Below are positions 1-35,214 of a stretch of DNA of 53,126 bases, one piece after another. A model generated the notes under the pieces. That model ran no database searches and was not told the origin of the DNA. It saw only the letters and a list, made by a program, of their open reading frames with translations. The DNA comes from Candidatus Saccharimonadota bacterium (GTDB lineage Bacteria > Patescibacteriota > Saccharimonadia > Saccharimonadales > UBA4665): contig JAGQNO010000001.1 of the NCBI GenBank assembly GCA_020428025.1, positions 1-53,126 of the forward strand. Direction: 5' to 3'. Within the stretch, counting starts at the first letter, position 1. Each line of letters starts with the position of its first letter. A program made the translations under genes and the position numbers.

Positions 1-888
1 ATTATGCGGCTGTTTGAAATTAACACTATGACGCGGCAAGCAGAAGAAGCATTTCTGCAGGCTGCGCCCATGACGCAGATTATGCAAGAATCGCCAGAGG
101 TACTGGACGATGCCGCCGCCCAGCCGCTCAAGATTACTGCTGGTAAAGTAGATTTTTCCAATGTCAGTTTTGCCTACCGTGACAATAATGCGGAACAAAC
201 CGTTTTTGATAATTTAGAACTCTCCATTGAGCCGGGCGAACATGTGGGCCTGGTTGGCCCCAGTGGCGGCGGCAAGTCTACGCTCACCCGTCTGCTGCTG
301 CGCTTTGACGATATTACGAATGGCGCCATTTTAATCGACGGTCAAGACATTCGCCGCATCACCCAAACCAGCCTGCGCGACGCGGTTGGCTATGTGCCGC
401 AAGAACCGCTGCTGTTTCATAGAAGTATCCGTGAAAACATTGCCTATGGACGTCCCGATGCCACCCAAGCGCAAATTGAAAACGCCGCCCAAGAAGCTCA
501 GGCGCACGACTTTATTAGCAAGCTACCAAACGGCTACGAGACCGTGGTGGGTGAGCGCGGCGTCAAACTGAGCGGCGGCCAGCGCCAACGCGTTGCTATT
601 GCTCGCGCTATCTTAAAAGATGCCCCTATCTTAGTACTCGATGAGGCAACTTCTGCGCTTGATTCAGAAAGCGAAAAAGCCATTCAGACTGCCTTGTGGG
701 AGCTCATGAAAAACAAAACTTCGCTAGTAATTGCCCACCGCCTCAGCACAATTCAGCGCCTAGACCGCATCCTGGTTTTGGATAATGGCCAAATTGTGGA
801 GCAAGGCTCGCACAAAGAACTCTTGGCAGCCAAAGGTCTGTACGCCAAGCTGTGGGCGCACCAATCTGGTGGGTTCATAGAGGACTAG
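1..888 (+). CDS. ABC exporter, C-terminal ATP-binding domain (gene start lies upstream of the window)
   Basis: Frame is open from nt 1. Walker A GPSGGGKST, ABC signature LSGGQRQR, Walker B ILVLDEATSALD, H-loop IAHRLST. MsbA-type NBD. Confidence 0.9.
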   Translation: MMRLFEINTMTRQAEEAFLQAAPMTQIMQESPEVLDDAAAQPLKITAGKVDFSNVSFAYRDNNAEQTVFDNLELSIEPGEHVGLVGPSGGGKSTLTRLLLRFDDITNGAILIDGQDIRRITQTSLRDAVGYVPQEPLLFHRSIRENIAYGRPDATQAQIENAAQEAQAHDFISKLPNGYETVVGERGVKLSGGQRQRVAIARAILKDAPILVLDEATSALDSESEKAIQTALWELMKNKTSLVIAHRLSTIQRLDRILVLDNGQIVEQGSHKELLAAKGLYAKLWAHQSGGFIED

Positions 889-897
889 CAAAATGAA

Positions 898-920
898 ATA
901 GCACCCGCCATGGGTGCTAT
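898..920. terminator. Hairpin between convergent ABC and L25 genes (likely bidirectional terminator)
   Basis: ATAGCACCC-gccat-GGGTGCTAT, a perfect 9-bp stem followed by atcatttta. It sits between stop 888 (+) and stop 940 (-). Confidence 0.5.
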
Positions 921-939
921 ATCATTTTATGAGTTTTTG

Positions 940-1641
940 TTACTCAGCGGTTTTCTGAGCAGCTTCAGATTCTGTAGCTTCTACAGAGCCTTCAGCGGCT
1001 GGGACGGCGCTGGCATCGGCTTCTTCGGCGTCGCCACCGGCGGCGTCGTTAGCTGCAGCCAGGGCGCTTGGTTCGTAAACGGTGGCAATGGCTTGGTCTG
1101 GGTCCATTTCTGGATCTAACTCTACGCTTTCAGGGAGAATCAGGTCTGCCACGGTGGCTTTGTCGCCTACTTCTACTAGTTTTTCTGCGTTGTAGTAGAG
1201 GCAGTCTGGTAATTTGGCAGGCAAAGCAAAGACGGTGATTTCATCTAGGTTGTTAATGACAATCAGGCTGTTGCGCTCGGCTGGGCTGGACTCGTTACCC
1301 TCATTGTACTGAGGCTTGATTGGCACGATAGCGTCCACGGTTTGGTTAGCATCTACAGCGTTAAAGACCACGTGCACTAGTTGCTGCTTGCGCGGCTCAA
1401 ACTCTGCTTCTTTAATCATGGCGGTGTACTTTTTGCCATCGGCCGTGAGTTCTACGGGGTGGTGACGGCCAGCACCTTTGTAGGCCAAGGTAAGCTCACG
1501 CACATCGCCCTGGACGATGATGGAATCCTTACCGTGGTTGTGGATAACGGCTGGCACCACGCCTTCTTTGCGCAGGTGTTTTACCGCTTTACCGGTTACT
1601 TTGCGCGGCGCTAGTGTGACCGCAACTTTGTCGTTAGACAT
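940..1641 (-). CDS. rplY: 50S ribosomal protein L25, long Ctc form, with acidic Ala/Glu-rich C-terminal tail
   Basis: N-terminus RKVTGKAVKHLRKEGVVPAVIHNHGKDS is typical of L25/Ctc. Two-domain length. The tail is AAGGDAEEADASAVPAAEGSVEATESEAAQKTAE. Confidence 0.85.
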   Translation of the reverse strand: MSNDKVAVTLAPRKVTGKAVKHLRKEGVVPAVIHNHGKDSIIVQGDVRELTLAYKGAGRHHPVELTADGKKYTAMIKEAEFEPRKQQLVHVVFNAVDANQTVDAIVPIKPQYNEGNESSPAERNSLIVINNLDEITVFALPAKLPDCLYYNAEKLVEVGDKATVADLILPESVELDPEMDPDQAIATVYEPSALAAANDAAGGDAEEADASAVPAAEGSVEATESEAAQKTAE

Positions 1642-16005: not shown

Positions 16006-16776
16006 TTATACACCCGTTAAACTGGCTGGTCCAGGCCCTTTGGCAACACAATTTTGACAAATTGCATCGGCCGAAGACAGCTGCCGCCGACAGGTGGGGC
16101 AAGCCGGCACAAGCGCGTCGACGCGAGCGGCTCGGCCAAACAGCGTAAACATGCCAATGGTCATGTACAGGCTTATGGACAGCGCGCCCAGGACAAACAT
16201 GGGTGTACCGCTGGACAGCCCAAAATCATACAGGCCGTGCAGCACCATAACCACGGCCAGTGGCAGTAGCGTAGACCAGATTGGTAATCCCTTGGCTTTG
16301 GCGCGGGCCACAAAATAGCCCGCAGCCCCTGTTAATGCAGCATGGAAAAATGAAACAATAATGAGCCGACCAATACCTGTACCAGCACCATCTACCAAGG
16401 TGTAGAGGATGTTTTCTGCAAAACCAAAGCCCAGGCCGCACAGTGCAAAGTAAATCACGCCATCGGTGCGCTCTGTAAAGTAGGGCTTGCGCCAGAGCCA
16501 GACTAGCAGTGGTAGGAACTTAACGGCTTCTTCTATGATTCCCACCAGCATAAAGTCAATAAACAGCGTACGCGTGCTAAAGAACAGGTCTGGATTAGTA
16601 ATGTCGTGCTGTATAAAGATTGACTCTAAGATGCCAGCCACAATCATGGCCACAACACCCATACAGAACGAACCCCATAACGCGCGTCGCGGCTCCAGCT
16701 CTCCCTTGTCGTGCCTAATGAACCAGCGCGCAAGCCAGAGCGCACCCAAAACAAATAAAGAGAGTATGAGCAACAT
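16006..16776 (-). CDS. PrsW-family intramembrane metalloprotease with C-terminal zinc-ribbon
   Basis: Multi-TM. EEAVKF and FFHAALTG motifs of the PrsW/CPBP-like family. C-terminus CPTCRRQLSSADAICQNC. The ATG overlaps the alaS TAA (TAATG). Confidence 0.7.
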   Translation of the reverse strand: MLLILSLFVLGALWLARWFIRHDKGELEPRRALWGSFCMGVVAMIVAGILESIFIQHDITNPDLFFSTRTLFIDFMLVGIIEEAVKFLPLLVWLWRKPYFTERTDGVIYFALCGLGFGFAENILYTLVDGAGTGIGRLIIVSFFHAALTGAAGYFVARAKAKGLPIWSTLLPLAVVMVLHGLYDFGLSSGTPMFVLGALSISLYMTIGMFTLFGRAARVDALVPACPTCRRQLSSADAICQNCVAKGPGPASLTGV

Positions 16777-21071: not shown

Positions 21072-21965
21072 TTATTGCCGTTCAGCACTCTCAAGCTCAC
21101 GCCGCAAAACATACAACTGATGCCGCCGCCCCAACCAAAACGATGTAAACAGCAGCGGAAGCACCAACAAAATCGGCCACCATAAAACAATCACCTTGGT
21201 TATAACTGATGAGGTGTTTTTGCCAGAAGCCGCCCCGCCCTGGCTGGCGCCATTGGCTACCGCTACCAGCTGCAAAAAGGCCGTCGTGCCATTTTTGTCG
21301 GTGACGCGCACGGTTACTTTATAAATACCAGCGGCGTTATATGTATGATCAATAGAAAAGTCGCCGGCAAAGTTCAAGCTCTTAAGCTGGGGGGCAGAAC
21401 CGTCGCCCCAGTCTACGCTGACCGCATACGGGCCCACGCCGCCGCTTAAAATCAGCGGCCAAGACAACGAGGTGCCAGGATTGACGCCGCGGCGGGCGTA
21501 TAAAGAAGTTAGAGACACCACCGTGCCAAACTGGGCAAATTGGGCATCTTTGTACGTTACATTTACGGTGTTAGAGTCTGGGCCGGCTTGGTCCAAGGCG
21601 TCGTAGACACGAGCTACCAGCGCGTTAGCGCCGGCAAACAACGTGGCCTGCAGGGTATAGCTGCCGCCCTTACAGGTGGTGGAGCCAATAAACACGTTGT
21701 TAGAGAAAATCTTAACCAGTGTGCCATTTGGACACAAACCGGCAATGGTAATCGGCATGGTACTAACGGTGGAGCCGTTGCCGGGCGTAGTAATGGTGGC
21801 CGCAGTTTTGGGCGGGTCCGTGCTAATGGTGCCTTCCAGGCCAATCTGGCCGGACTGCGGGTTCTGCGAGGTATCCGTGGCGGCCAGCACCGGAGCAACG
21901 CTACCAAAACTTAGCAGCAGCCCCAGAAGACTAGCGGCGGCGGCTTTGCGAACGCGCCACCACAC
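21072..21965 (-). CDS. Membrane-anchored surface protein with Ig-like and PKD-like domains (last gene of surface locus)
   Basis: GTG start at 21965 gives signal peptide MWWRVRKAAAASLLGLLLSFGSVAPVLAA. Ig-like ITIAGLCPNGTLVKIF..TTCKGGSYTL. PKD-like LILSGGVGPYAVSVDWGDGSAP. C-terminal TM with FWLGRRH. Confidence 0.6.
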   Translation of the reverse strand: MWWRVRKAAAASLLGLLLSFGSVAPVLAATDTSQNPQSGQIGLEGTISTDPPKTAATITTPGNGSTVSTMPITIAGLCPNGTLVKIFSNNVFIGSTTCKGGSYTLQATLFAGANALVARVYDALDQAGPDSNTVNVTYKDAQFAQFGTVVSLTSLYARRGVNPGTSLSWPLILSGGVGPYAVSVDWGDGSAPQLKSLNFAGDFSIDHTYNAAGIYKVTVRVTDKNGTTAFLQLVAVANGASQGGAASGKNTSSVITKVIVLWWPILLVLPLLFTSFWLGRRHQLYVLRRELESAERQ

Positions 21966-22983
21966 GGCGGTTGTAAGCCTTGATTGCTCGCGGCAGCCCA
22001 AAGATGGCGGCCAGCAGCAGCACAATTAACAGTACAAACAGTACAATTGCCCAGAACGGAATAATGTAGAAGTTGGTACTAGCCGTGATTAGCGACCCGT
22101 TGGAGCCGTAGCCAAAGTTGCCAACAAGTTTGTAGGCACCAATTTTGCCCAGCTTGGTGGTGAACGGAATATCAAACTTACGAATACTACCTGGCAGCAC
22201 GTTACCGCGCGGGGTTTCATTGTTGACTTCGTAGTTGGCAATGATTTTACCGCGCCAGGTCTGCAGCTGGATTTTGCCAAAGGGCTGCTCTTGGATATCC
22301 CCGGCGTTTTGGAAGCGGACGGTAGCCTTGAGCTTGTCAGGACTGCTAAAAATGGTGCGGGGAGCATCGATTTGGTTGGGGCCAACAATTTTGCGGACAT
22401 CTAGGCTTGCCACGCTGAGCGCTTCGCGGATGTCGCCCGGCACAGTGACTAGGATAAGCGACCCAACACTAGCAGATAGCGTTACGTTCTTAGAGGCCGC
22501 ATTGTCTGAGCTAGCAGGCACAAAACGCACGGCGCCGTAGTAGCCACCGGCTTTGTAGTCTTTGGGTACGGTAACAGGCACGTTAATGTTGGCCGTCTGG
22601 CCCGGAGACAATGTTACGTTAGGAATATCGCCCACCAAGCGCTTTAGGCTGTGGCTTTGGGCAAATTGGTTGGAGTCTAGAATGATTTGCGGCTGACCGG
22701 TTTCATCGGTGGCGGCGGTAAAGTCGTTAATAACTACTTTGTAGCTAGCCACCTGGGAGGTAACGTTTTCTACCGTAACTGGCACAATTTGGGTACTGCC
22801 GGCATTAACCGTAATATCTGAGCGCACCGGCGATATTTTAAGCCCGCTAGAACTGGCAGATCCGTTGGCCGCAATAGGTTTAGTGGCTTGCGTGGCGGGT
22901 GCAGCGGCAGCGATGCCTCCACTTAGAAGAATACTGCCAGCTACCACCAGGCTGAACAGATTCATGAGCCTTACACGCAACAT
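21931..22983 (-). CDS. DUF916/DUF3324-type (CscA-like) cell-surface protein with C-terminal TM anchor
   Basis: Signal peptide MLRVRLMNLFSLVVAGSILLSGGIAAAA. Two Ig-like halves with KAGGYYGAVRF and LPGSIRKFDIPF..IGAYKLVGNF patterns typical of these families. C-terminal TM and basic tail. Confidence 0.55.
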   Translation of the reverse strand: MLRVRLMNLFSLVVAGSILLSGGIAAAAPATQATKPIAANGSASSSGLKISPVRSDITVNAGSTQIVPVTVENVTSQVASYKVVINDFTAATDETGQPQIILDSNQFAQSHSLKRLVGDIPNVTLSPGQTANINVPVTVPKDYKAGGYYGAVRFVPASSDNAASKNVTLSASVGSLILVTVPGDIREALSVASLDVRKIVGPNQIDAPRTIFSSPDKLKATVRFQNAGDIQEQPFGKIQLQTWRGKIIANYEVNNETPRGNVLPGSIRKFDIPFTTKLGKIGAYKLVGNFGYGSNGSLITASTNFYIIPFWAIVLFVLLIVLLLAAIFGLPRAIKAYNRRVVARSQSRRR

Positions 22984-23175
22984 ATTTTTTGGATCCTTTT
23001 TTACTCTTTGCTCATATAGTAACAAAGTGGTTACGCTTTTGGCAAATGCCCTTTTGGCGCTTTTACCAGAATGGCCGATTTCTAAAAGCCCACGCGGCGG
23101 CCACGCTATGGGCCTTCTATGCTACCAAACCTAAGCTTCTGGAAATCGCCGTCGCCGGGAGATCCCGTAAACAAA

Positions 23176-24213
23176 CTAAAACGTCCCCAGAGCCACATAG
23201 CTCATGGTAGACACGTACACGCCCGGTGCCTGGCCAGCCGGCACATTAACCACGTAGGTCACGGTGTACTTGCGGGCCTCGTCTGGCTGGGTGGTTACGG
23301 CAATGGCGTCGCCAGGATTAAAGGCAAATTTGTTAATCTGATTGTAGCTGGCAGTGGGCAGACCAAAGCCGGTGCCGGAGACATCTTGCCCACCCTGCGG
23401 GGCGCTGTTGGCACGTAAGTTTATACCAAATTGGCCAGTTCCGGTCTGCACTGGGCTGGCGCCAGTTAGGGCTGGGATGACATTATTACCAGAGGTCATA
23501 GTAGTGCCGCCCACATAGATAGAATAACCGCTAATAGCGTTGCTGGCGGCCAAGATTTGGCTGGTGCCCTGGCTGGTTATGCGGCTAGAAAGTTCGCCAA
23601 AGTTGACGTAATCGCCCTGCACATTGTTGCAATCATAGCCAGTTATAGTCACCCCAACGCACATTAAAAGGTACGGCGGGACGGTAGCCTTAATGCTAAT
23701 ATCCATGTTAATTGCGTACGCAATGCCGCCGGTGTAGCTGGGCACGCCGCTCAGGTTGCCGTCTTGGTAGGTAAGCACGCGCACATAGTAGGAACCCTCT
23801 GCGTCTGGGTTGCGTACGCCGTCAAACTCATAGGTGCTAAGCAGCTGGCTGGCAGCCAGTGGCGGCCGCATAATGACGATTTGGTTGGTGGTGGTCTGCG
23901 GGCTCATGACAAAGCCCATTTCTCCAGACTGACTCAGCAGTACAGCTTGGCTAACATCTAGGCCGGCGGGGGGCGTACAGGGCGACTCCGGGAATGGGTC
24001 GTTGGCACATATTTGAAATACAATGGTCTGCACCGTGTCCATGCCGGGCATTTGCAAGCTAAATTTGTAGCGACTCGTGCCCGCCGCCAAAGCGTTAGAC
24101 AACATCAGCGATCGATTTTGCAGCTGCGTGCCCTGCGCCCACAAACTCTGCGCAAACACTAGCAGCGCACAGAGCGCTAGGAGCAGACCGGCGGCAAACT
24201 GCGTCCGCTTCAT
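23176..24213 (-). CDS. Secreted surface protein, GTF-tail family (member D, 345 aa)
   Basis: Start at MKRTQFAAGLLLALCALLVFAQSLWA (signal peptide). Shares GTGQFGINLRAN, GDAIA and the C-terminus APGVYVSTMSYVALGTF with neighbours. Confidence 0.7.
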   Translation of the reverse strand: MKRTQFAAGLLLALCALLVFAQSLWAQGTQLQNRSLMLSNALAAGTSRYKFSLQMPGMDTVQTIVFQICANDPFPESPCTPPAGLDVSQAVLLSQSGEMGFVMSPQTTTNQIVIMRPPLAASQLLSTYEFDGVRNPDAEGSYYVRVLTYQDGNLSGVPSYTGGIAYAINMDISIKATVPPYLLMCVGVTITGYDCNNVQGDYVNFGELSSRITSQGTSQILAASNAISGYSIYVGGTTMTSGNNVIPALTGASPVQTGTGQFGINLRANSAPQGGQDVSGTGFGLPTASYNQINKFAFNPGDAIAVTTQPDEARKYTVTYVVNVPAGQAPGVYVSTMSYVALGTF

Positions 24214-24223
24214 GGGGTGGCCC

Positions 24224-25513
24224 TTAGAACGTACCGGTTGCAATCATGGCTAGGTTGGCGGTGTAGATACCGGCCGGGGTGGTGCTAGCTGCGGTAGCGG
24301 CAAAGTCGTACTTGTTAATCAGCAAGTTTACTGGGGAGGTAGAGTAGGCAACGCGGTCACCGTACAGTGTCTTAACGTTATCGACACTGGTGGTATCCAT
24401 GGCGTAATGGCTGAGAGTGCCATCGTTATAGTTGGTGTCGCATGTTATGGCACCGACGCTTAAGACTAGGTCTGCGTTGGTGCTGTCGTTGCAGTGCATA
24501 CCAAAGGCAGCTGTTCCAGCCGTGATTGCACCAGGGGTTGCTGCACCGGCATTAGCTGCTGGGATAGCACAGGTTACGCCAGCATCGATGCTTAAGCCAC
24601 CACAAGCATTACTGTTTTGCATTCTTATGGCCACGCCGTTCAAGGCGTTAGTAGAGGTGATTGTAAAGACAGACCCGGTGTCTACCGCGGAGGTGTCCAA
24701 GGTGTTGTTAGTGCCGTGTCCTAAGGTGATTGCGGGGACCACTAAGTTACCCGTAGGCGTACAGCTGGTCGGTGATGTAGGCGCTCCAGGAGGTGGCGTG
24801 GTACTGCCGCTGACACAGAAGGTTAGTGTTTCCTGGACCTTAGCCGTTACCTGAATTACGTAGGCGGTACTGAGCGCAAAACCACCGTAATCCTGATACG
24901 AACCTGGCGCAGCGTGCGTGTAAGCAGCTGGAGCGGTGTCCGATGTGTAGGTAATCAAGCGGGCATAAAAGGTACCAAGTTCACTTGTGTTGGTAACACC
25001 ATTAATCGCAAACGAGTAGGCAGTACCGGCCGTAACGCCAACGCCGGTGCTATCTGACATAGTAAAGGTTTGACCGGAGTTTAGTGAGCTGGCTGTCCAG
25101 CCAGCGCCCAAGCTGCTGTAGGCTACAGGGGTTGATGTGGTGTTGTCCGTATACGCACTGGTGTCTATGGTTGGTGTTGCACCAACGGTAAATCCTGCCG
25201 GAGCGGGACAGTTGGCGTCTTCAATAAACGGCGTACCGCCGGTGCCAGAACAAAAGTCAATTACTATGCCCTTTAAGGTGTACGCGGTAGCCGATGTAAA
25301 CGTAACGCGGTAGCTTACGTTGGTACCGCTACCCACACCGGTAGTAATAGCCCCACCGCTCACGCCGCTATCGCTCATTTTTATGGAGCGGAACTGCACC
25401 TGACCACCAGCGCCAGCGGCCAAAACAACGGCCGTTGGCGACATCGCAAACAGCATACCTAGCGTCATTAGGACGCTGAGTGGCCGTTGAATTCGTTGTT
25501 TAAAAGTGTTCAT
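24224..25513 (-). CDS. Secreted surface protein, GTF-tail family (member C, 429 aa)
   Basis: Start at MNTFKQRIQRPLSVLMTLGMLFAMSPTAVVLAA. Close paralog of 25641-26876. C-terminus TPAGIYTANLAMIATGTF. Confidence 0.7.
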   Translation of the reverse strand: MNTFKQRIQRPLSVLMTLGMLFAMSPTAVVLAAGAGGQVQFRSIKMSDSGVSGGAITTGVGSGTNVSYRVTFTSATAYTLKGIVIDFCSGTGGTPFIEDANCPAPAGFTVGATPTIDTSAYTDNTTSTPVAYSSLGAGWTASSLNSGQTFTMSDSTGVGVTAGTAYSFAINGVTNTSELGTFYARLITYTSDTAPAAYTHAAPGSYQDYGGFALSTAYVIQVTAKVQETLTFCVSGSTTPPPGAPTSPTSCTPTGNLVVPAITLGHGTNNTLDTSAVDTGSVFTITSTNALNGVAIRMQNSNACGGLSIDAGVTCAIPAANAGAATPGAITAGTAAFGMHCNDSTNADLVLSVGAITCDTNYNDGTLSHYAMDTTSVDNVKTLYGDRVAYSTSPVNLLINKYDFAATAASTTPAGIYTANLAMIATGTF

Positions 25514-25640
25514 GAGGTTGTGCGGTTGTTTGATTTTTAATTTCCCTTGTGTTGATAGTATCACGCTTGTCAATGTAAGCGCAAGCATTTCCCTCCTGGG
25601 GCGCCCTCTTTGGTGTTTTTGGATGTGTAATTGTTTCATT

Positions 25641-26876
25641 TTAGAATGTCCCCGTAGCAATTAATGCTAAGTTAGCGCTGTACAAACCGGCCGGCGTCGA
25701 GTTGCTGGCTGTGGCGCCAAACGTAAGTGTGTTATTAACATTACTAACAGGTCCAGTGCTAGAAGCAATGTTGTCGCCAAAGGTGGTCGTAACATTGCTG
25801 CCGCTGGTGGTACTATCCATAGCAAAATGAGCCACATTGCCATCGTAATAGTTTCCATCTGGCGTTATAGTTCCAGTGCCACTAGTGCCAAGACTAATAT
25901 TCATGCCAAAAGCCGCCGTGCCAGCGGTCATCGCAAAAGGTGTGGCACCACCGGCATTTACCGGCGGAATATCACAAGTTGTGCCGCCATCAACACTTAA
26001 GCCACCGCAGGCGTTACTGTTGTGCATTCTAATGACTACCCCGCTTAGGGCGTTGGTAGAGACCTGCGTGTAGGCTAATCCGGTGTCTACATTTGAGGAA
26101 TCGATAATTTTTGCCGTACCGCCGGCAGTGTGTCCCAACGTTATAGCTGGTGTGGTTACGCCGCCGCAGTTAGCAGCAGGAGCGGCGCCAGATACGCAGA
26201 AGATTAAACTTTCCTGAACGCGCGCCGTAATGGTAATGACCATGGCGGTACTCAGCGCAACACCGCCAAAGTCCTGCTCGCCGCCAGTGGCTGCCGTTTG
26301 GTTGTGGGCTTGGGCCTGGGCGGCTGATGTATAGGTATAAATACGTGCGTAGAATGTGCCTACGGTGCTGGGGTTAGTAAACCCGTTGGATGTGCCGTTG
26401 CCCATTTCTATTATGAGCGGCGATGTTAAAGAAGATGCTGAGGCGCGCGTTAGAACAATCCGGTTTGCCACCGGACCAGTGGTGTAAACCCCAAAGTTGC
26501 CCCCGGCGCCCACACCGCTCTGAGTGCCAAGTGTGGTGGTGGCGCTGTTGGCGTTAAAGCCGGTGGGCGTGGTACACGTATCGAAGTACAGTGGGCTGTT
26601 AGCACAAAAATCTACGACTATACCACCCACAGCGCCGTTGTTGCCCACGCTAAATTTGAGCTTGTACGCCACGTTGGTGCCGCTGCCAACCCCTGTTGTA
26701 ATCGTGCCGCCGGAGGGGCCGGAATCGCTCATAGTAATGCTGCGGCCGTTGAGCTGCGCTGCCCAGACGGTGGCCGGCATAGCGGTAGAAATCAGCAAAG
26801 ACAAAACCATCACCACCGCTGGAAGCGATGGCGTGCCATCAAATATACGCTGAATGTGGCCGATGTATTTTTTCAT
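25641..26876 (-). CDS. Secreted surface protein, GTF-tail family (member B, 411 aa)
   Basis: Signal anchor LPAVVMVLSLLISTAMPATVWA. RSITMSDSGPSGGTITTGVGSGTNV block shared with member C. C-terminus TPAGLYSANLALIATGTF. Confidence 0.7.
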   Translation of the reverse strand: MKKYIGHIQRIFDGTPSLPAVVMVLSLLISTAMPATVWAAQLNGRSITMSDSGPSGGTITTGVGSGTNVAYKLKFSVGNNGAVGGIVVDFCANSPLYFDTCTTPTGFNANSATTTLGTQSGVGAGGNFGVYTTGPVANRIVLTRASASSLTSPLIIEMGNGTSNGFTNPSTVGTFYARIYTYTSAAQAQAHNQTAATGGEQDFGGVALSTAMVITITARVQESLIFCVSGAAPAANCGGVTTPAITLGHTAGGTAKIIDSSNVDTGLAYTQVSTNALSGVVIRMHNSNACGGLSVDGGTTCDIPPVNAGGATPFAMTAGTAAFGMNISLGTSGTGTITPDGNYYDGNVAHFAMDSTTSGSNVTTTFGDNIASSTGPVSNVNNTLTFGATASNSTPAGLYSANLALIATGTF

Positions 26877-26975
26877 TTTTTGGTTTTGGGCATTGTAGCA
26901 GCTATAATCTGCTGTTATTTTAGCTTCACCTTAGCTTAGCGTAGCACTAGCGGAATAAACATGCAAGGGGTGTGT

Positions 26976-27737
26976 TTAAAAAGTCGATGTAGCCACCAGC
27001 ACGTGCTGCAGCGTGTACTGCCCGCCCGGCGTGGCGTTGGAAACATTAAACAAGTATGAAATGGTGTAATCTGTCTCGCCGCTACTCTTGTTGCTGTAGG
27101 CAATGGTATCGCCGGTAACGTACTTAAAATAGTTGGGCGTATCGTAGCCAGCGGCGGCCTGACCAAAACTAAAACTGGCATCCGGCGCCTGGGAAGGATT
27201 TGCGCCAAACGTCACCGGCGCGGTGTTGGCCACCAAGTTAATGCCAAACTGCTCCGTGCCCACGCTAGAAATTGCGGGGGTAGTTAGACCCAACATAATG
27301 TAGCTGCTATTGGTTGGCCCCGGCGATGTCTGCACCACTGTATATCCGTTAGACAGGTATGTTTTTACCGTAAAAGTTGCCGTGGCCGTCTTGGCTGCCG
27401 TAGATGTAAGCGTGCCTAAGTTGGTACCGGGATTGGTTACTGTAAATTGCAGCCAAGGCTGTCGGTCTGTGTTAAAACCAGCGTTAGATTGGTAGCTGGT
27501 GCTGGTAGTGTTGCCCACCGCCGTCTCTCCTGCTGCCTGCTTAGAGCAGTACGTGCTGGAACAAGCGCGCAGGTTGCCGCCGCTGCCAAAGAAAATTTCG
27601 TTTACTCGGTAATTGCTAGACGATGCCTGCGGCACAGTATTTGCCAACACAATAGCCGGCGCCAAGACCAGCAGAGCACCAACCAGAATTACAGCCAGAG
27701 CGATTTGTTTGCGCAGCATACATCTATAGTATGCCAT
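26976..27737 (-). CDS. Secreted surface protein, GTF-tail family (member A, short form; start may be ATG 27719)
   Basis: Signal peptide MLRKQIALAVILVGALLVLAPAIVLA. GTEQFGINLVAN, GDTIAY and C-terminus TPGGQYTLQHVLVATSTF. Confidence 0.7.
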   Translation of the reverse strand: MAYYRCMLRKQIALAVILVGALLVLAPAIVLANTVPQASSSNYRVNEIFFGSGGNLRACSSTYCSKQAAGETAVGNTTSTSYQSNAGFNTDRQPWLQFTVTNPGTNLGTLTSTAAKTATATFTVKTYLSNGYTVVQTSPGPTNSSYIMLGLTTPAISSVGTEQFGINLVANTAPVTFGANPSQAPDASFSFGQAAAGYDTPNYFKYVTGDTIAYSNKSSGETDYTISYLFNVSNATPGGQYTLQHVLVATSTF

Positions 27738-27787
27738 AAGCGGAATATGCTAGACTACAAGCAGCACGTAATACATGCAAGAACAGG

Positions 27788-28804
27788 GTGGAAGACAAAA
27801 AAAACGCCGATGCCGAACCCGCCGAAGAGTCGCTGGAGCAAGCCGCGACTATTGTTGACGCGCCTGAAACAGACAAGAATGATGGCGACCCCGATGTCAT
27901 TGCCGCCGACAAAAACGTAAAACGCACCGTTGGCAGCCCGCTTAAACCATCGGTAGCCAAGCAGACCCAAAGTTGGCTGTTAAGTCTTAATATTTGGCTG
28001 CTTTTATTTGTCTTTGTGCTAGTAGTGGCGGGCGTGATTGCCTTCTTTAGCTACAGCTACAGCAAGAAAAAATCCGGGAGTGGCGGCACCATTAACACCA
28101 CCACCCTGACTCCGGAAGTCCTCAGCCAGCTCACCAAAAACGATGCCACCGTGGGCTCCAGCGGCCAAGTCCTGTACGTACAAAGTAGCGCCGTTTTTAC
28201 CGGCAAAATCCTAGCCCGATCCGACCTAGAAGTGGCCGGCAACCTGGTTTTGGGTGGACTTCTGAACGTACCCAGCATTAACGTAGCTGGCAATGCTGGC
28301 GTGGGCCAGCTGAACGTCAGCCGCAACATGGCTGTCACCGGTGACACCGCCATTCAGGGCCAAGTCACCATATCTAAAACCCTCCAGGTTGGCGGCAGCG
28401 GCACCTTTACCGGCCCCCTTTCTGCCCCGCAAATCACCGTTGGCTCTTTACAGTTGGGTGGCGATTTAGTCATTAGCCATCATATAACAGCCGGCGGTGG
28501 CACGCCCGGCCGATCCGTTGGCACAGCCCTAGGCAGCGGCGGCACCGCCAGTGTCAGTGGCACGGACACCGCCGGATCAGTCAGTATTAACACCGGCGGC
28601 GGCCCGCCGGCTGGCTGCTTCATAACTGTCAATTTTGTGACTAAATTTAACAGCACGCCTTACGTGCAAGTAACGCCTGTTGGCTCATCGGCCGGTGGTA
28701 TTGCCTATTACGTCACCAAGACAACGGCCGGCTTCAGCATTTGCACGGCGACGGCACCCCCGGCTAACGCTAACTTTGGGTTTGATTACTTTGTGATTAA
28801 CTAA
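27788..28804 (+). CDS. Bitopic membrane protein with external beta-helix-like repeats and a small C-terminal beta-sandwich (possibly lectin-like) domain
   Basis: GTG start, acidic N-terminus, TM WLLSLNIWLLLFVFVLVVAGVIAFF. Repetitive v.G.l.v.G segments (LEVAGNLVLGG, INVAGNAGVGQ, LQVGGSGTFTG, LQLGGDLVIS). The domain assignments are by eye. Confidence 0.6.
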   Translation: MEDKKNADAEPAEESLEQAATIVDAPETDKNDGDPDVIAADKNVKRTVGSPLKPSVAKQTQSWLLSLNIWLLLFVFVLVVAGVIAFFSYSYSKKKSGSGGTINTTTLTPEVLSQLTKNDATVGSSGQVLYVQSSAVFTGKILARSDLEVAGNLVLGGLLNVPSINVAGNAGVGQLNVSRNMAVTGDTAIQGQVTISKTLQVGGSGTFTGPLSAPQITVGSLQLGGDLVISHHITAGGGTPGRSVGTALGSGGTASVSGTDTAGSVSINTGGGPPAGCFITVNFVTKFNSTPYVQVTPVGSSAGGIAYYVTKTTAGFSICTATAPPANANFGFDYFVIN

Positions 28805-29108
28805 CCTCTACGACTGGTGTTCGCACAACTTTTCTGGAAACATACAGCGTTACAAAAAAGTTTACAACCATAGCCCCAACCCAAAAATATACAGCCGGGC
28901 CTAAAGTAACATTGATAGGTTTACCTTCTATTCCAAAAGGCATTTGGTCTACAAAAAACGGAATAAAAGATAATCCAATCGCCAATCCGGCTAAGATAAG
29001 TGCAGTCTTTTTGTTTCGGATCTTAAAACACTCTAACCAACTCAAGGCCATAGCAATATTTGCCCACCAAGCAATTATACCCGGGTGAATTGGCATCCAA
29101 CAAAACAT
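28797..29108 (-). CDS. Hypothetical membrane protein (103 aa, 3 TM)
   Basis: Hydrophobic ORF convergent with 27788-28804. No family recognised. Confidence 0.4.
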   Translation of the reverse strand: MFCWMPIHPGIIAWWANIAMALSWLECFKIRNKKTALILAGLAIGLSFIPFFVDQMPFGIEGKPINVTLGPAVYFWVGAMVVNFFVTLYVSRKVVRTPVVEVS

Positions 29109-29138
29109 GGCACCAGCCAGGGTACCATTGGAATCAAA

Positions 29139-29217: not shown

Positions 29218-29553
29218 CTAAACGTCTAAAAACACCCGCACAGTATCCTGATGCACGTGCAGTAGACCACCGGCAATCCGGATGCGCTTGTTACCGGACG
29301 GCGCCGCCACATGCATCTCACAAGAAGTTAAGAGCGAGATAAAGTTGTGGTGATGCGGCAACACATCAAACGGGCCGGTGGCGTTTTCTGCGGACAGGCT
29401 AAAGGCCTCTTCATTGTAATACACGTGGAAAGGCGAGTAGACTTTTAAGCTCATGACCGGCTTGCCGTCGACCAATTTTTCCTTGGGGGCTTCTGCGGCT
29501 GGCTGGCCGTCGTCTACAATTTGACCGGTGCTGGCGTCCTGTCTTTTTGCCAT
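29218..29553 (-). CDS. atpC: F1 epsilon-like subunit (beta-sandwich only, N-terminal extension, no C-terminal helical hairpin)
   Basis: MSLKVYSPFHVYYNEEAFSLSAENATGPFDVLPHHHNFISLL matches the epsilon pattern (l.v.tP......v..v.....G.fgiLp.H.p.i..L). Position is immediately after beta. Confidence 0.65.
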   Translation of the reverse strand: MAKRQDASTGQIVDDGQPAAEAPKEKLVDGKPVMSLKVYSPFHVYYNEEAFSLSAENATGPFDVLPHHHNFISLLTSCEMHVAAPSGNKRIRIAGGLLHVHQDTVRVFLDV

Positions 29554-29555
29554 CT

Positions 29556-31716
<2,161 letters not shown>

Positions 31717-31720
<4 letters not shown>

Positions 31721-33297
31721 GCTTTTGGCTCCTCTTCTTTTTCTGGTGCGGCCTCTTCAGTTGGCGCCTCCTGTGCTGGGGCCTCTGGCGCGGCCGATGC
31801 TTCTTCTGGTGCGTCCGTAGCCGGTTTTTCTGCCGGTTCTGGCACTTTTAGGTTACCAGTGTCTGCGCCGCCCATAAGCTGAACTTTAGCCTTTTCCCGC
31901 AGTTGGTCACGCACTAGGTCGTAGTTGCCTTCATCGTCCTGCACCTCTTTAGCCGATTCATGCACGTGCTCTTTGAGCGACTTAATATCCACCACTTCTT
32001 CTGGTGGCGTGTTCATAATTATGTCCAACATGAGCACTTGTTCTATAGGGGTATACGTCTCATTAGGGGCCTGGCTCATGAGCTCATACAGCTTTTTACC
32101 AAGCTGCAAGTCGCGCTGCGCTTCTAGGGCCATTTCTGAACCAAAGTGCGCAAATTCTTCTGCCGCGCGGTAACCGTTTAAGGTCTTAATCAGCTGCGCG
32201 GCCAGCTCTTTCTGCCGCTTGTTTAGGCCAAGACCACCAACACGAGTCACAGACAAACCAGTGCTGACGCCGGGGCGCATGGTATCTTTAAACACCTTGG
32301 TGTCCAAAATCCACTGACCGTCTGTAATGGACATGATGTTAGTGGGCAGATATGCCGTGATGTCACCGCCGGGCGTCAGTACTAGTGGCAGGCTGGTGAG
32401 GGTTTTACTGTTAGACTTAAGCCGTCCGGCACGCTCCAAGAGGCTGGAGTGCTGGAAAAACATGTCACCTGGGTAGCTATCGCGGCCCGGGCTAGAGCCG
32501 GAAAGCAGCGCGATTTCCCGGTAGGCGTGGGCGTGACTGGTTAAATCGTCATAAATAATTAGAGTGTCTGTGTCGCATTTTTGCCAGAGATATTCTGCCA
32601 TAGAGCAGGCCACGTAGGGCGCTAAATAGCTCATGACCAACGATTCAAAGACGGTAGACACCACCACAATGGCTTTTTCTATGGCGCCGGTTTCTGTTAG
32701 CTTGGTTAGCACAGCATCGATGTCCGCGCGGCGCTTGGCCACCATGACATAGACCACCGTAATATCGGTTTCTTTCTGGTTGAGCAGCATCTGCATAGCC
32801 AGGGTGGTTTTACCAACTTTACTGTCGCCCAAAACCGCAAGACGCTGGCCGCGCACAAGGGGGAATAATTCATCTAAAACGGTTAAGCCGGTGGGTAACT
32901 GCGTGCTTAGGGCTTGACGTTTGGCAATACCAGGCGCGGCGTTAAAGACCGGCCAAACGGCGTCGGGCGCAATGGGCCCTTTGCCATCCAGCGGGTCGCC
33001 CATAACAGATACCACACGGCCCACAAAGCCCTTGCCTACTTTACACAAAAGCTCCTGATGCTGAACCACGGCCATCATGCCATTTTGCAGCGTTTCTGCG
33101 CCTAGGTGCAGCACGTACACGGTGGTGTTATCTACATGGTGCACAAAACCTTTGCTGCCATCTTCAAACATAATTAGCGCGTGAATATTGACCGGGTGCA
33201 GGCCGTTAACCTTAACAATAAAGGTGTCGACGCCAACAACTTCGCCCACAGGATTGCCGGCTTCTACCAACTTGTCAAAATGTCGATTATCGCTCAT
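31717..33297 (-). CDS. atpA: F1 alpha-like subunit, divergent, with about 50-aa Pro/Ala/Glu-rich C-terminal tail
   Basis: Walker [69 protein letters not shown] (Arg-finger context). The tail is [41 protein letters not shown]. Confidence 0.85.
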
Positions 33298-33812
33298 GCC
33301 TTGGGCGCCTCCTGCTTTGCGTGCAGACCCTCTATAAGCAGGTGCTTGTTATCGCGCAGCGAATTTTTGAGGCTAAAATCATACAATTTACTGGTGGTGC
33401 GCAGCGTGCAGCCCGCGGCAATACTGGGCTGCAGACCCACTTTAATCAGGAGCATAGGATGGATATTAGTGCGCAGCCAGGTGACAATTTTATTCATAAA
33501 AAGGCTGGACGGGTCAGCCGCAAAACTCATGGCCACAGCGGGCGCTTTGGTAAGCAAGGTGTCTAAATGCTTCAATAGCGCCTCTTGACCCTCTTGCTTG
33601 GCTAGATCGCAGCCGTAGCCGTTGGCTAGCTCTGCTAAGACTTTGCCCACCTTAGGTGTTTCTGTGGCTACACCAGCTTTGGTTTTTAGGCGGGCCGCGG
33701 TAGCAAGTTCTATGTGACGCTCTAGGGCGCGCTTAAGCCGCGCCACATCCCCCGGTGACACCACGCTCACAGGTAGGATTGCTTTAGGCTCCACGCCGCA
33801 CGTCCTCGGCAA
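33294..33812 (-). CDS. atpH: F1 delta/OSCP-like subunit (true start may be an internal GTG near 33794)
   Basis: C-terminal half [13 protein letters not shown]...[32 protein letters not shown] fits the delta pattern (v.sa..l......i.........v....vdp.liGG..v..g....D.S....L). Position is between b-like and alpha. Confidence 0.6.
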
Positions 33813-34326
33813 TGGCCTCTTTGTTAGCGCTTAGTTCGCCAATTATGTATTCTAACTGGTCAGATAAATCGATTTGATTCCCAATAGCAGCCAAGATGTA
33901 GTGGTTGACGATTTCTGCCATGTCGTCCTCAAAGCGCATGATCATCTGCTGCTTCTCTGCCTGCAGCTGAGCAGAAAGTTCCGCGGATAGGGCCTGACGC
34001 TGCTCCTCAATAACCTGATTGGTCTTTTCTATGCTATCTATGGCCAGGTTTTTGGCATCCATAATGGACTGCTCGTATTTGGCAAATTCTTCCTGCAACT
34101 TCTTGGTGATTTCTGTCTTCATGTACTCGTTTAACTGGCTAGTGGTTAAACGAAGGTCTTGCTGCAGGAACATAGCGTTCTCACCAATAATTTTCTCAAA
34201 GTGCAGACGACCGCGGTTTCTAAGCTCTTCCCGGAACTGATCATCAAAAATATGCTCGGCATTCATTTTTGCCGCTTCGTCAAGCTGCTGATCGGCTGAT
34301 TTTACTGGTTTTTTCTTTCCAAACAT
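33784..34326 (-). CDS. Coiled-coil stalk protein in the subunit-b position but with no transmembrane segment
   Basis: 180 aa, entirely hydrophilic and heptad-like (EEQRQALSAELSAQLQAEKQQMI). Synteny with atpF. No hydrophobic N-terminus. Confidence 0.5.
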   Translation of the reverse strand: MFGKKKPVKSADQQLDEAAKMNAEHIFDDQFREELRNRGRLHFEKIIGENAMFLQQDLRLTTSQLNEYMKTEITKKLQEEFAKYEQSIMDAKNLAIDSIEKTNQVIEEQRQALSAELSAQLQAEKQQMIMRFEDDMAEIVNHYILAAIGNQIDLSDQLEYIIGELSANKEAIAEDVRRGA

Positions 34327-34344: not shown

Positions 34345-35214
34345 TTATAATTTTAGCACTAAATAGACGGCGACTAAACAGCCGATAAAAATGAGCAGGC
34401 CGGTAATGACTACTTGGATCATGTTGCGCATAATCGATTGCTTGGCCAGCGGGTTTCTACCAATCGCCATCATGCCGCTCTGGATACCACCGTACATCAG
34501 GGCTGCAGTAATGCCAAAGCCAGCAAGCATAATGGCAATGCTGACGTAGAGCTGGCTGGCGTTAATTGGCTTACCAACAACGCTTATGGCTGCTTTTTGC
34601 ACAAACTGCGGCACGCCGCTACTGTTGGTGACCAGTAGCGGGTTTTTGGCCACGCCGATGTCTACCTGGACGCTACCAATTGCAGCTTGGATTTCTGCAC
34701 CTTTACTGGTTTTTAGCTTGGCTACAGAGGCCACATTGTTCTTGCCGTCAAAGGTGCCTACGGCGCGGCCTAGGATTGTAGCCTGACTTGTATCGGCTTT
34801 CATGCCAATTCCGCTGATGGCCGATACGCTTATGGGGTCGCCCGCACCAATACTACCGTTTTGATTACTAACCAAGACGTAATAGCGGCCACTCGTAACC
34901 ACATATACCTGATTACCCGCGGCCGTAGCCGGATCCGTGCTAGAGAGGCTAACCGCCGCACTATTAGGTGCCACCACCACTCCAAATAACTTCTTAGAGT
35001 CTGCATAAGTGGCAAGCGCGACGCTGCCTTGCTTCTTGGTGTCCGGCTGGACAATAAAGCCCGGCCGCAGCGTTTCCGATGCCTTGTATGCCTGAGCCAC
35101 GGACTGCAGACTAGAGGCGTTGGTGTTGGTTTGCTTATCTGCCGCTAAAACCGTTGCCGGCATTAGCAGCAAAACCACCCCTGTTATTACCGACCATGCA
35201 GCGCGGCGTATCAT
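34345..35214 (-). CDS. Signal-peptide protein with about 200-aa external domain fused to a C-terminal c-subunit-like helical hairpin lacking the ion-binding carboxylate
   Basis: Signal peptide MIRRAAWSVITGVVLLLMPATVLA. C-terminal LAGFGITAALMYGGIQSGMMAIGRNPLAKQSIMRNMIQVVITGLLIFIGCLVAVYLVLKL resembles the c-subunit TM1, ARQP-type loop and TM2. No D/E in either helix. Confidence 0.5.
   Translation of the reverse strand: MIRRAAWSVITGVVLLLMPATVLAADKQTNTNASSLQSVAQAYKASETLRPGFIVQPDTKKQGSVALATYADSKKLFGVVVAPNSAAVSLSSTDPATAAGNQVYVVTSGRYYVLVSNQNGSIGAGDPISVSAISGIGMKADTSQATILGRAVGTFDGKNNVASVAKLKTSKGAEIQAAIGSVQVDIGVAKNPLLVTNSSGVPQFVQKAAISVVGKPINASQLYVSIAIMLAGFGITAALMYGGIQSGMMAIGRNPLAKQSIMRNMIQVVITGLLIFIGCLVAVYLVLKL

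Follow-up and report, generated by a model that had tools for sequence, protein, structure and literature searches.

A subunit c-like hairpin protein without a membrane carboxylate heads an F1-like ATPase operon conserved in Saccharibacteria

Rotary F-type ATPases are textbook ion-coupled machines, and all known F-, V- and A-type rotor rings need a glutamate or aspartate in the membrane. To our knowledge, the only exceptions are the F1-like X0 ATPases of mycoplasmas, which seem to use ATP for mechanical work at the cell surface and whose membrane sector is not understood. These ATPases lack b and delta subunits, serve gliding and MIB-MIP antibody release, and have been stated to be without equivalent in other bacteria (PMC3369863, PMC12994834); their authors regarded a protein of the system that has a signal peptide and two transmembrane (TM) helices as a possible substitute for the stalk. 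Here we describe a gene, designated X, that lies in a stretch of 53,126 nucleotides (the window) from a Candidatus Saccharimonadota bacterium (contig JAGQNO010000001.1 of assembly GCA_020428025.1) and encodes a signal peptide, an extracellular domain and a C-terminal hairpin resembling the F-type subunit c. We lean, with modest confidence, toward the reading that X is the membrane subunit of a second, divergent, Saccharibacteria-specific F1-type ATPase that does not move ions and passes torque or strain to the extracellular domain of X.

The original prediction, which was made from the DNA letters and drew attention to the hairpin, gave the open reading frame of X and its termini exactly and left only the strand (minus) unstated. 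The translation begins with MIRRAAWSVITGVVLLLMPATVLA followed by ADK, continues into a Ser/Val/Gly-rich region, and ends in ...LAGFGITAALMYGGIQSGMMAIGRNPLAKQSIMRNMIQVVITGLLIFIGCLVAVYLVLKL. The parts of the gene are as follows.

34345..35214, minus strand: gene X, a 289-residue precursor with signal peptide, ectodomain and c-like hairpin (open reading frame list; homologues; AlphaFold2 model)
34345-34347, minus strand: stop codon of gene X
35143..35214, minus strand: signal peptide, residues 1-24, MIRRAAWSVITGVVLLLMPATVLA (judged by eye)
34645..35124, minus strand: extracellular beta-rich domain, residues ~31-190, like a phage cement or fibre-anchor barrel (PF22758; Foldseek)
34561..34644, minus strand: juxtamembrane linker, residues 191-218, with a near-invariant N191-P192 and a short helix at 203-213 (alignment; AlphaFold2)
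34348..34560, minus strand: C-terminal helical hairpin, residues 219-289 (TM1 219-250, loop 251-263, TM2 264-289; AlphaFold2; Foldseek)
34450..34458, minus strand: codons of the invariant R253-N254-P255, the cytoplasmic loop motif (sequence verified; alignments)

X is a real, widespread gene and not a chance occurrence. A 90%-identity clustered protein database holds 429 homologues, which belong to Saccharibacteria or Saccharimonadales wherever they are named, and an exhaustive HMMER search with X returned 613 clusters at 50% identity (E<=1e-30). Among the 150 clusters listed, lengths are mostly 255-310 residues, and some members are shorter and apparently partial. Relatives are present in 302 GTDB species genomes, nearly all of them labelled Saccharibacteria.

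The strongest evidence that X is part of an ATPase is its operon context, which is absent from the original prediction. Downstream of X lie six genes whose products resemble subunits of the F1 sector and its stalk.

33784..34326, minus strand: b-like gene b', encoding a 180-residue helical protein (position and architecture; highly conserved)
33294..33812, minus strand: delta/OSCP-like gene delta', 172 residues (TIGR01145, E=0.005; Pfam OSCP, E=0.06)
31717..33297, minus strand: alpha-like subunit, 526 residues, with a Pro/Glu/Ala-rich C-terminal tail (PF00006, E=3.9e-65)
30863..31720, minus strand: gamma-like subunit, 285 residues (PF00231, E=7e-30)
29556..30866, minus strand: beta-like catalytic subunit, 436 residues (PF00006, E=2.3e-64)
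29218..29553, minus strand: epsilon-like subunit, 111 residues (PF02823, 44.5 bits)

The operon thus runs on one strand in the order X, b', delta', alpha, gamma, beta, epsilon, with a gap of 18 nucleotides between X and b'. We mapped 83 Saccharibacteria loci by tblastn, with flanks of +/-10 kb, in which X is 39-62% identical to the window protein. The order nifS-X-b'-delta'-alpha-gamma-beta-epsilon was found in essentially all of these loci that lie on contigs long enough to show it, and the gaps between X and b' are mostly 14-50 nucleotides, with a few of 77-177 nucleotides. No gene for subunit a or an ordinary subunit c was detected in the window (by tblastn with c subunits from four sources and E. 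coli a) or in the +/-10 kb flanks of the loci. The only membrane element of the conserved operon besides X is the single TM helix of b'.

The F1 subunits of the window are divergent. All of them score best on F-type models, yet they fall under the equivalog, mycoplasma F1-like and N-ATPase cut-offs. Against the NCBIfam equivalog models, alpha scores 390 bits on atpA TIGR00962 (cut-off 484), beta 435 bits on atpD TIGR01039 (cut-off 463), gamma 93 bits on TIGR01146 (cut-off 194), epsilon 35 bits on TIGR01216 (cut-off 67) and delta' 17 bits on TIGR01145 (cut-off 57.5). The catalytic motifs of beta are intact in translation, including Walker A and a Walker B-like FADN, as is the Arg-finger context SVTRVGG of alpha. 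The identity of delta' is further indicated by its family profile, for which all ten PDB matches with E<1 are OSCP/delta proteins aligned at the C-terminal domain. The b' profile, by comparison with PDB and Pfam, gave no credible match to ATP-synt_B, so the b-like label of b' comes solely from its position and architecture; its counterparts in nearly all other species have ~205 residues, with an N-terminal TM helix and a long, highly conserved helical region (for comparison, L001:10866-11486 and L002:10877-11506). A read-through fusion of X and b', which share a reading frame with a single TAA between them, was considered and rejected, given that the X C-terminus is expected outside the cell.

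Among further features of these genes, the C-terminal ~65 residues of alpha (31717-31920) form a low-complexity tail rich in Pro, Glu and Ala, and the length of alpha varies by species, from 475 residues in L002 to 658 in L001. The window epsilon consists of the N-terminal beta-sandwich only, preceded by a 33-residue N-terminal extension, and is without the C-terminal pair of helices by which canonical bacterial F1 is inhibited. A scan of the window for promoters and terminators gave counts equal to the shuffled expectation; a terminator-like hairpin lies at 29107-29128, ~90 nucleotides past epsilon. It is overlapped by a hydrophobic open reading frame of 103 residues (28797-29108, minus strand) that follows epsilon and is conserved only in the close relative L004, and which is therefore probably outside the complex.

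Published gene counts bear on whether this operon stands beside a canonical F1Fo. Southlakia epibionticum has a canonical atpI-a-c-b-delta-alpha-gamma-beta-epsilon operon and two PF00006 proteins only (PMC10633639, supplement). In KEGG orthology (KO) counts of complete genomes, every subunit occurs once in TM7x and RAAC3, while Ca. Saccharimonas aalborgensis, GWC2_44_17 and the cultivated Ca. Mycosynbacter amalyticus each have two atpA, two atpD and two atpG with one a, one b and one c (PMC12592800, Table S5). Since two sets of alpha, beta and gamma beside a single a, b and c is the pattern that the X operon would produce, these counts from related genomes suggest that the operon is a second ATPase beside the canonical F1Fo in some Saccharibacteria. 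Several bins of the Saccharimonadia order CAILAD01 have one alpha, beta, gamma and epsilon and no a, b or c (PMC12592800, Table S5), and by these counts they may hold only an Fo-less F1-type complex. A literature search on F1-like ATPases in Saccharibacteria or Patescibacteria found no papers, and the papers that deal with the F-type ATPase of Saccharibacteria handle it as one ordinary ATP synthase, PMC12592800 and PMC10633639 being without comment on a second complex.

We modeled the full-length X protein with AlphaFold2 from a 96-sequence alignment, with a mean predicted local distance difference test (pLDDT) score of 86.4. In the model, a disordered N-terminus is followed by a beta domain (residues ~39-190), the short helix (203-213) and, last, a pair of long helices (219-253 and 255-288). 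The signal-peptide region, which is of low pLDDT and poorly conserved, has by eye a Sec-type look, with RR in the n-region, a hydrophobic core, and VLA before the A at which the mature protein would begin.

The hairpin was also modeled by itself (pLDDT 95.7) and compared by Foldseek with 350,542 PDB chains. F-type c subunits account for 49 of the 50 top fold matches, with TM-scores of 0.76-0.83 on both normalisations and root-mean-square deviations of 1.4-2.0 Å over 66-71 residues at 14-25% identity. The full-length model splits alike in Foldseek, with phage capsid matches for the ectodomain and c subunits for the hairpin. When a profile of 56 hairpin sequences was run against all PDB sequences, three matches were returned at E<=10, and the top two are c subunits (Chloroflexus 9itj_H, E=0.16; Acetobacterium 4bem_A, E=0.21). 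In these alignments, which meet at AIGRNP(E/L), R253-N254-P255 of X lies in register with the RQP/RNP loop of both proteins. A tblastn search of the window with the c subunits of E. coli, PS3, bovine and M. tuberculosis did not align X, and an NCBIfam search with X at E<=0.01 matched no model.

TM1 of X has no GxGxGxG; small residues form a stripe on one of its faces (S/G 225, T/G/S 232, A 236, G/A 237, G 243, G/S/A 247, A/S 250). The loop carries the basic residues R253, K258, K/Q259 and R263. Given that the signal peptide would export the N-terminal domain and that the basic loop would face the cytoplasm, the predicted topology of X fits that of subunit c, with the N-terminus outside, the loop in the cytoplasm and the C-terminus outside.

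The absence of aspartate and glutamate from both helices, on which the original prediction turned, was confirmed for the window protein and extends to its relatives. For this analysis, 176 distinct X hairpins were drawn from the homologues and the fetched loci and filtered on the loop motif [GS]RNP[LM]. At the TM2 core positions 268-284, aspartate or glutamate occurs in 0 of the 176, and the alignment of orthologs shows no conserved carboxylate. The position of the c-subunit carboxylate aligns to L273 of X, where L, I, V or M is found across the family. Glutamate occurs elsewhere in the hairpin at position 245 in two of the 176, at 285 in one and at 267 in four, the last being a position that is normally Q and lies where TM2 begins on the cytoplasmic side. 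By sequence, therefore, the loss of the carboxylate is family-wide, and a sequencing change or a strain-specific change is ruled out as its explanation. Likewise, no methionine occurs between residues 139 and 228, and the first after residue 138 is M229; since M229 lies within TM1, no Met start yields a normal c subunit of 70-90 residues, as had been noted originally.

The loop at residues 251-263 is the best conserved segment of X, with a mean top-residue frequency of 0.83, followed by TM2 with 0.67, the value for the ectodomain being 0.59. R253-N254-P255 never varies, either among the 176 motif-filtered hairpins or in the 96-sequence alignment, to which no motif filter was applied. Q267 is nearly constant, and Y284 and F276 vary hardly or not at all. 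Greatest conservation in the loop and TM2 is a pattern unlike that of a passive anchor, and it fits a surface that docks a cytoplasmic partner.

The ectodomain has relatives among phage structural proteins. Residues 31-165 match Pfam PF22758, Phage_cement, with 29.9 bits against a cut-off of 27 (E=6.9e-7), and a Pfam search with 96 family members at E<=0.01 matched XM1_gp53_minor_capsid in 12, Phage_cement in nine and Phage_cement_2 in three. A PHROGs search with X matched no family. By Foldseek, the best PDB match is the Pam3 capsid entry 8hdt_G (E=5e-5), with others in capsid entries of BB1, HFTV1, Sf11 and TW1, the last including the TW1 capsid-stabilising protein. In BFVD there are 50 matches at E<=1e-3, the best at 4.7e-10, and these are mostly N-terminal barrels of long phage proteins, namely the preneck appendage barrel, the Mtd N-terminal domain and DUF2190. 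In phages, the cement-type module serves as an oligomeric docking unit with a structural role and is not an enzyme.

Given these features, we propose the following mechanism. The signal peptide would be cleaved, leaving the phage-cement-like domain of ~170-190 residues outside the membrane, while TM1 would run inward, the Arg-Asn-Pro loop would reach the cytoplasm and TM2 would return outward. Several copies of X would assemble through the hairpin as a ring or a smaller bundle, and their loops would form a docking surface for the foot of gamma and epsilon. The delta-like and b-like proteins would hold the alpha3beta3 head, so that ATP hydrolysis would drive gamma and epsilon against the X oligomer, and rotation or torsional strain would pass through the hairpins to the extracellular domains. 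Because the operon has no subunit a and X has no membrane carboxylate, the energy could not enter an ion gradient. An extracellular crown would be allowed by geometry: the N-terminal helix of each subunit lies on the inside of a c ring, and the 28-residue linker could carry the 17-kDa domains outward. In its fullest form the proposal is a rotary or torsional motor, in which the F1 head and stalk would drive a carboxylate-free c-like ring and a phage-anchor-like crown would turn or flex outside the cell, engaging the fibre-like (bactofilin-like beta-helix) and WxL-type proteins encoded downstream as an ATP-powered machine for host attachment, movement or attack. We offer this form speculatively and judge it unlikely. 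If true, it would be the first F-type motor outside mycoplasmas with a mechanical output across the membrane, and the first in which a recognisable c-like rotor is so adapted.

Several observations weigh against a c-like, ATPase-driven X. The Foldseek E-values of the hairpin are only 0.02-1, as expected for such a small fold, and a Pfam search with the last 70 residues of X gave no match even at E<=10. An hhalign comparison of the hairpin family with subunit c gave a probability of 4% (P=0.01), the test being limited by a small, hand-typed 10-sequence c alignment. The profile comparison with ATP-synt_C that the original prediction had proposed was not significant, and a two-helix hairpin is a simple fold. 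The predicted resemblance to subunit c therefore stands in layout, fold and loop register and falls short in profile significance (no Pfam match; E=0.16 and 0.21; hhalign 4%). The claim of homology to subunit c draws on fold, motif register and operon position, and the sequence statistics are not significant; with no significant profile match, descent of X from subunit c is plausible but unproven.

The operon evidence has its own exceptions. The whole neighborhood, metS-tatD-two small genes-nifS-operon-bactofilin-like gene-secreted protein cluster, is syntenic order-wide, so the adjacency of X and the ATPase genes is partly inherited gene order and weaker evidence than it looks. In one locus, L075 (DATNAB010000088.1), the bactofilin-like gene and then the surface cluster come straight after X (1253-2110); b', delta', alpha, gamma, beta and epsilon are all absent from the space between, and the ATPase genes have been either lost or moved elsewhere. 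In two others, L016 (1817-4392) and L082 (10001-12271), X is followed directly by alpha, the upstream genes differ, and tblastn detected no b' or delta'; in some lineages the complex thus seems to work with an operon that has no genes for a peripheral stalk. In the window and in its 96%-identical relative L004, b' begins MFGKKK and is without the TM helix, and since the TAA stop of X lies in frame 18 nucleotides upstream, a longer b' is impossible and the start was not mis-called. Finally, in the absence of an a-like stator, a rotating ring would have no evident counterpart to turn against.

This last point, together with the short b' of the window, which must attach elsewhere and possibly to X, favors an alternative in which X is a static membrane anchor or stator, present in few copies, perhaps as trimers, that tethers the F1-like head together with b', while ATP hydrolysis would bring about cyclic conformational changes without net rotation. 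A similar model has been proposed for the mycoplasma Type 3 ATPase, where the protein with a signal peptide and two TM helices has been considered a possible stalk substitute. It is also in keeping with the trimers that phage cement proteins, the fold relatives of the X ectodomain, typically form. However, delta' and b' already supply a peripheral stalk, and the c-like fold and the invariant RNP loop in the register of subunit c point to a role that faces gamma and epsilon. We take this alternative seriously while considering it improbable.

We find it somewhat more doubtful that X is a surface protein with a C-terminal hairpin anchor that sits beside ATPase genes by chance, its resemblance to subunit c being convergent, as the original prediction had allowed. 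The lack of a significant profile match to subunit c would be expected in that case, and the order-wide synteny of the region, which takes in the unrelated metS, tatD and nifS, and the L075 X beside a surface cluster without ATPase genes are compatible with it, as is another secreted protein of L075 that by eye has a similar N-terminal domain motif. Still, a mere anchor would not be expected to have its cytoplasmic loop and TM2 as its most conserved parts, nor RNP in the exact c register, nor fold matches that are almost exclusively c subunits. In addition, the place of X is exactly that of a and c in atp operons, and no other gene is a candidate for the membrane part facing gamma and epsilon; without it, the F1-like complex would have just the TM helix of b' in the membrane.

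That X is a true ion-translocating ring with non-carboxylate ligands (e.g. Q267, Y284), working with an unrecognised a-like partner or with the a subunit of the canonical Fo, is very improbable: the near-invariance of Q267, the invariance or near-invariance of Y284 and F276, and the canonical a subunit that some genomes also hold speak for it, but none of the 176 hairpins has an ionizable mid-membrane residue, position 267 is displaced toward the cytoplasm by ~6 residues from the carboxylate position 273, the conserved operon is without an a-like gene, and all known F/V/A rotor rings need a membrane Glu/Asp.

Right after the operon, at 21072-28804 of the window, lies a cluster of genes for secreted proteins. 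It comprises a 338-residue membrane-anchored, weakly bactofilin-like beta-helix protein encoded on the opposite strand, four proteins (253, 411, 478 and 355 residues) that all end in ...(A/L)(T/G)(G/S)TF, a WxLIP_PGBD/fn3_5 protein with a C-terminal TM helix, and a PKD-domain protein. This surface block follows epsilon in about 55-64 of the 83 loci; it may work together with the ATPase or may simply reflect conserved gene order. In L075, where X carries the glutamate at position 285, the open reading frame upstream of X (168-1253, plus strand) has by eye an N-terminal motif like that of the X ectodomain (…GRVLVKVTGEGGAIKPGDYLTTSSTAGYAMKA…GKAL…) and beta-helical repeats, and its C-terminal domain, also by eye, resembles that of the 338-residue protein of the window. 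If the motif likeness holds, fibre-like surface proteins would also draw on the module that forms the X ectodomain. Farther away, a PrsW-family intramembrane protease is encoded at 16006-16776 (minus strand; PF13367, E=2e-29), and surfaced through a chance tblastn match to a c subunit.

X is more than a lone odd protein: it points to a second F-type machine in Saccharibacteria, widely conserved and so far unrecognised, whose mechanism we infer. A system comparable to that of mycoplasmas is now seen in a different phylum, conserved in hundreds of Saccharibacteria species, and by published gene counts the cultivated Ca. Mycosynbacter amalyticus may carry it. On the preferred reading, in which X is the membrane subunit of an ATPase that moves no ions, the operon gives a simple model for the passage of F1 torque across a membrane without ion flow, and points to more than one origin, among host-dependent bacteria, of a switch from coupling with ions to mechanical work at the surface. 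Furthermore, Saccharibacteria genes that metabolic reconstructions count as F-type ATPase may belong to a second, probably non-bioenergetic complex, and inferences about energy metabolism that are based on ATP synthase therefore need re-checking.

Comparison with known systems places X and its operon as follows. The X ectodomain is alike in sequence and fold to phage cement or decoration proteins and fibre N-terminal anchor barrels (PF22758, PF23982, PF09956/DUF2190; Pam3 gp6, E217 gp24, the phi29-type preneck appendage barrel). However, these are soluble virion proteins, whereas the module in X would be exported by a signal peptide and is fixed to a c-like hairpin of the membrane, its gene being part of a cellular operon. 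With F-type subunit c (AtpE, PF00137), X shares a hairpin of ~70 residues, the predicted N-out/loop-in/C-out topology, an Arg-(Gln/Asn)-Pro loop in register, a fold TM-score of ~0.8, and a place in an operon, which X heads, with b-like, delta-like, alpha, gamma, beta and epsilon genes. It differs in having no membrane Asp/Glu, a face of small residues in place of a canonical GxGxGxG, and no significant Pfam or HH match, in its fusion to a signal peptide and an extracellular domain of ~190 residues, and in the lack of a subunit a in the operon.

The flagellar and type III secretion ATPase complex (FliI6-FliJ with FliH) is a precedent, in that its F1-related ATPase has a shaft resembling gamma and a stalk protein resembling b/delta and acts on a membrane module that is not Fo. 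FliI is a homohexamer, whereas the alpha and beta of the window are distinct and score far higher on F-type than on FliI/SctN models, and there are no export-gate genes. The N-ATPase (atpDCQRBEFAG) is a second F-type operon beside the canonical one, as the X operon is proposed to be, but it keeps a and a carboxylate-bearing c, adds AtpQ and AtpR, and has a different gene order; the window alpha and beta score 322 and 399 on the alt_F1F0 models, whose cut-offs are 750 and 752. Membership of the X operon in either the FliI/type III secretion or the N-ATPase family was rejected on scores and gene content.

The nearest functional precedent for the X operon is provided by the mycoplasma F1-like X0 ATPases, that is, the G1 gliding ATPase of M. 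mobile (MMOB1610-1670) and the MIB-MIP-associated cluster (MMCAP2_0575-0581 / MSC_0618-0621 region). Both kinds of system have an extra alpha/beta/gamma/epsilon set without a or c genes beside a canonical operon, the latter being indicated here by the KO counts of related genomes. A further shared component is a membrane protein that begins with a signal peptide, carries a large part outside the cytoplasm and finishes in two TM helices connected by a short loop (MMCAP2_0577, MMOB1650, MSC_0620; compared by description). In each case the bacterium is genome-reduced and host-dependent, and the proposed role is the delivery of ATP-derived force to the cell surface. The Saccharibacteria cluster differs in having b' and delta' and in being without the 12-TM protein and the small cytoplasmic protein, and X has 289 residues as compared with ~770-1100. 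On the NCBIfam MSC_0619 and MMOB1660 models, the window alpha scores 254 and 316 (cut-offs 520 and 600), and on MSC_0618 and MMOB1670 the window beta scores 372 and 320 (cut-offs 570 and 850); both subunits score higher on canonical atpA and atpD than on the mycoplasma models, which suggests, as far as sequence scores can indicate, that the two systems are of independent origin. Given that X has no carboxylate and that its operon has b and delta and no 12-TM protein, we place the X operon outside both the subunit c and the mycoplasma families, as an F1-like ATPase with a non-Fo membrane sector.

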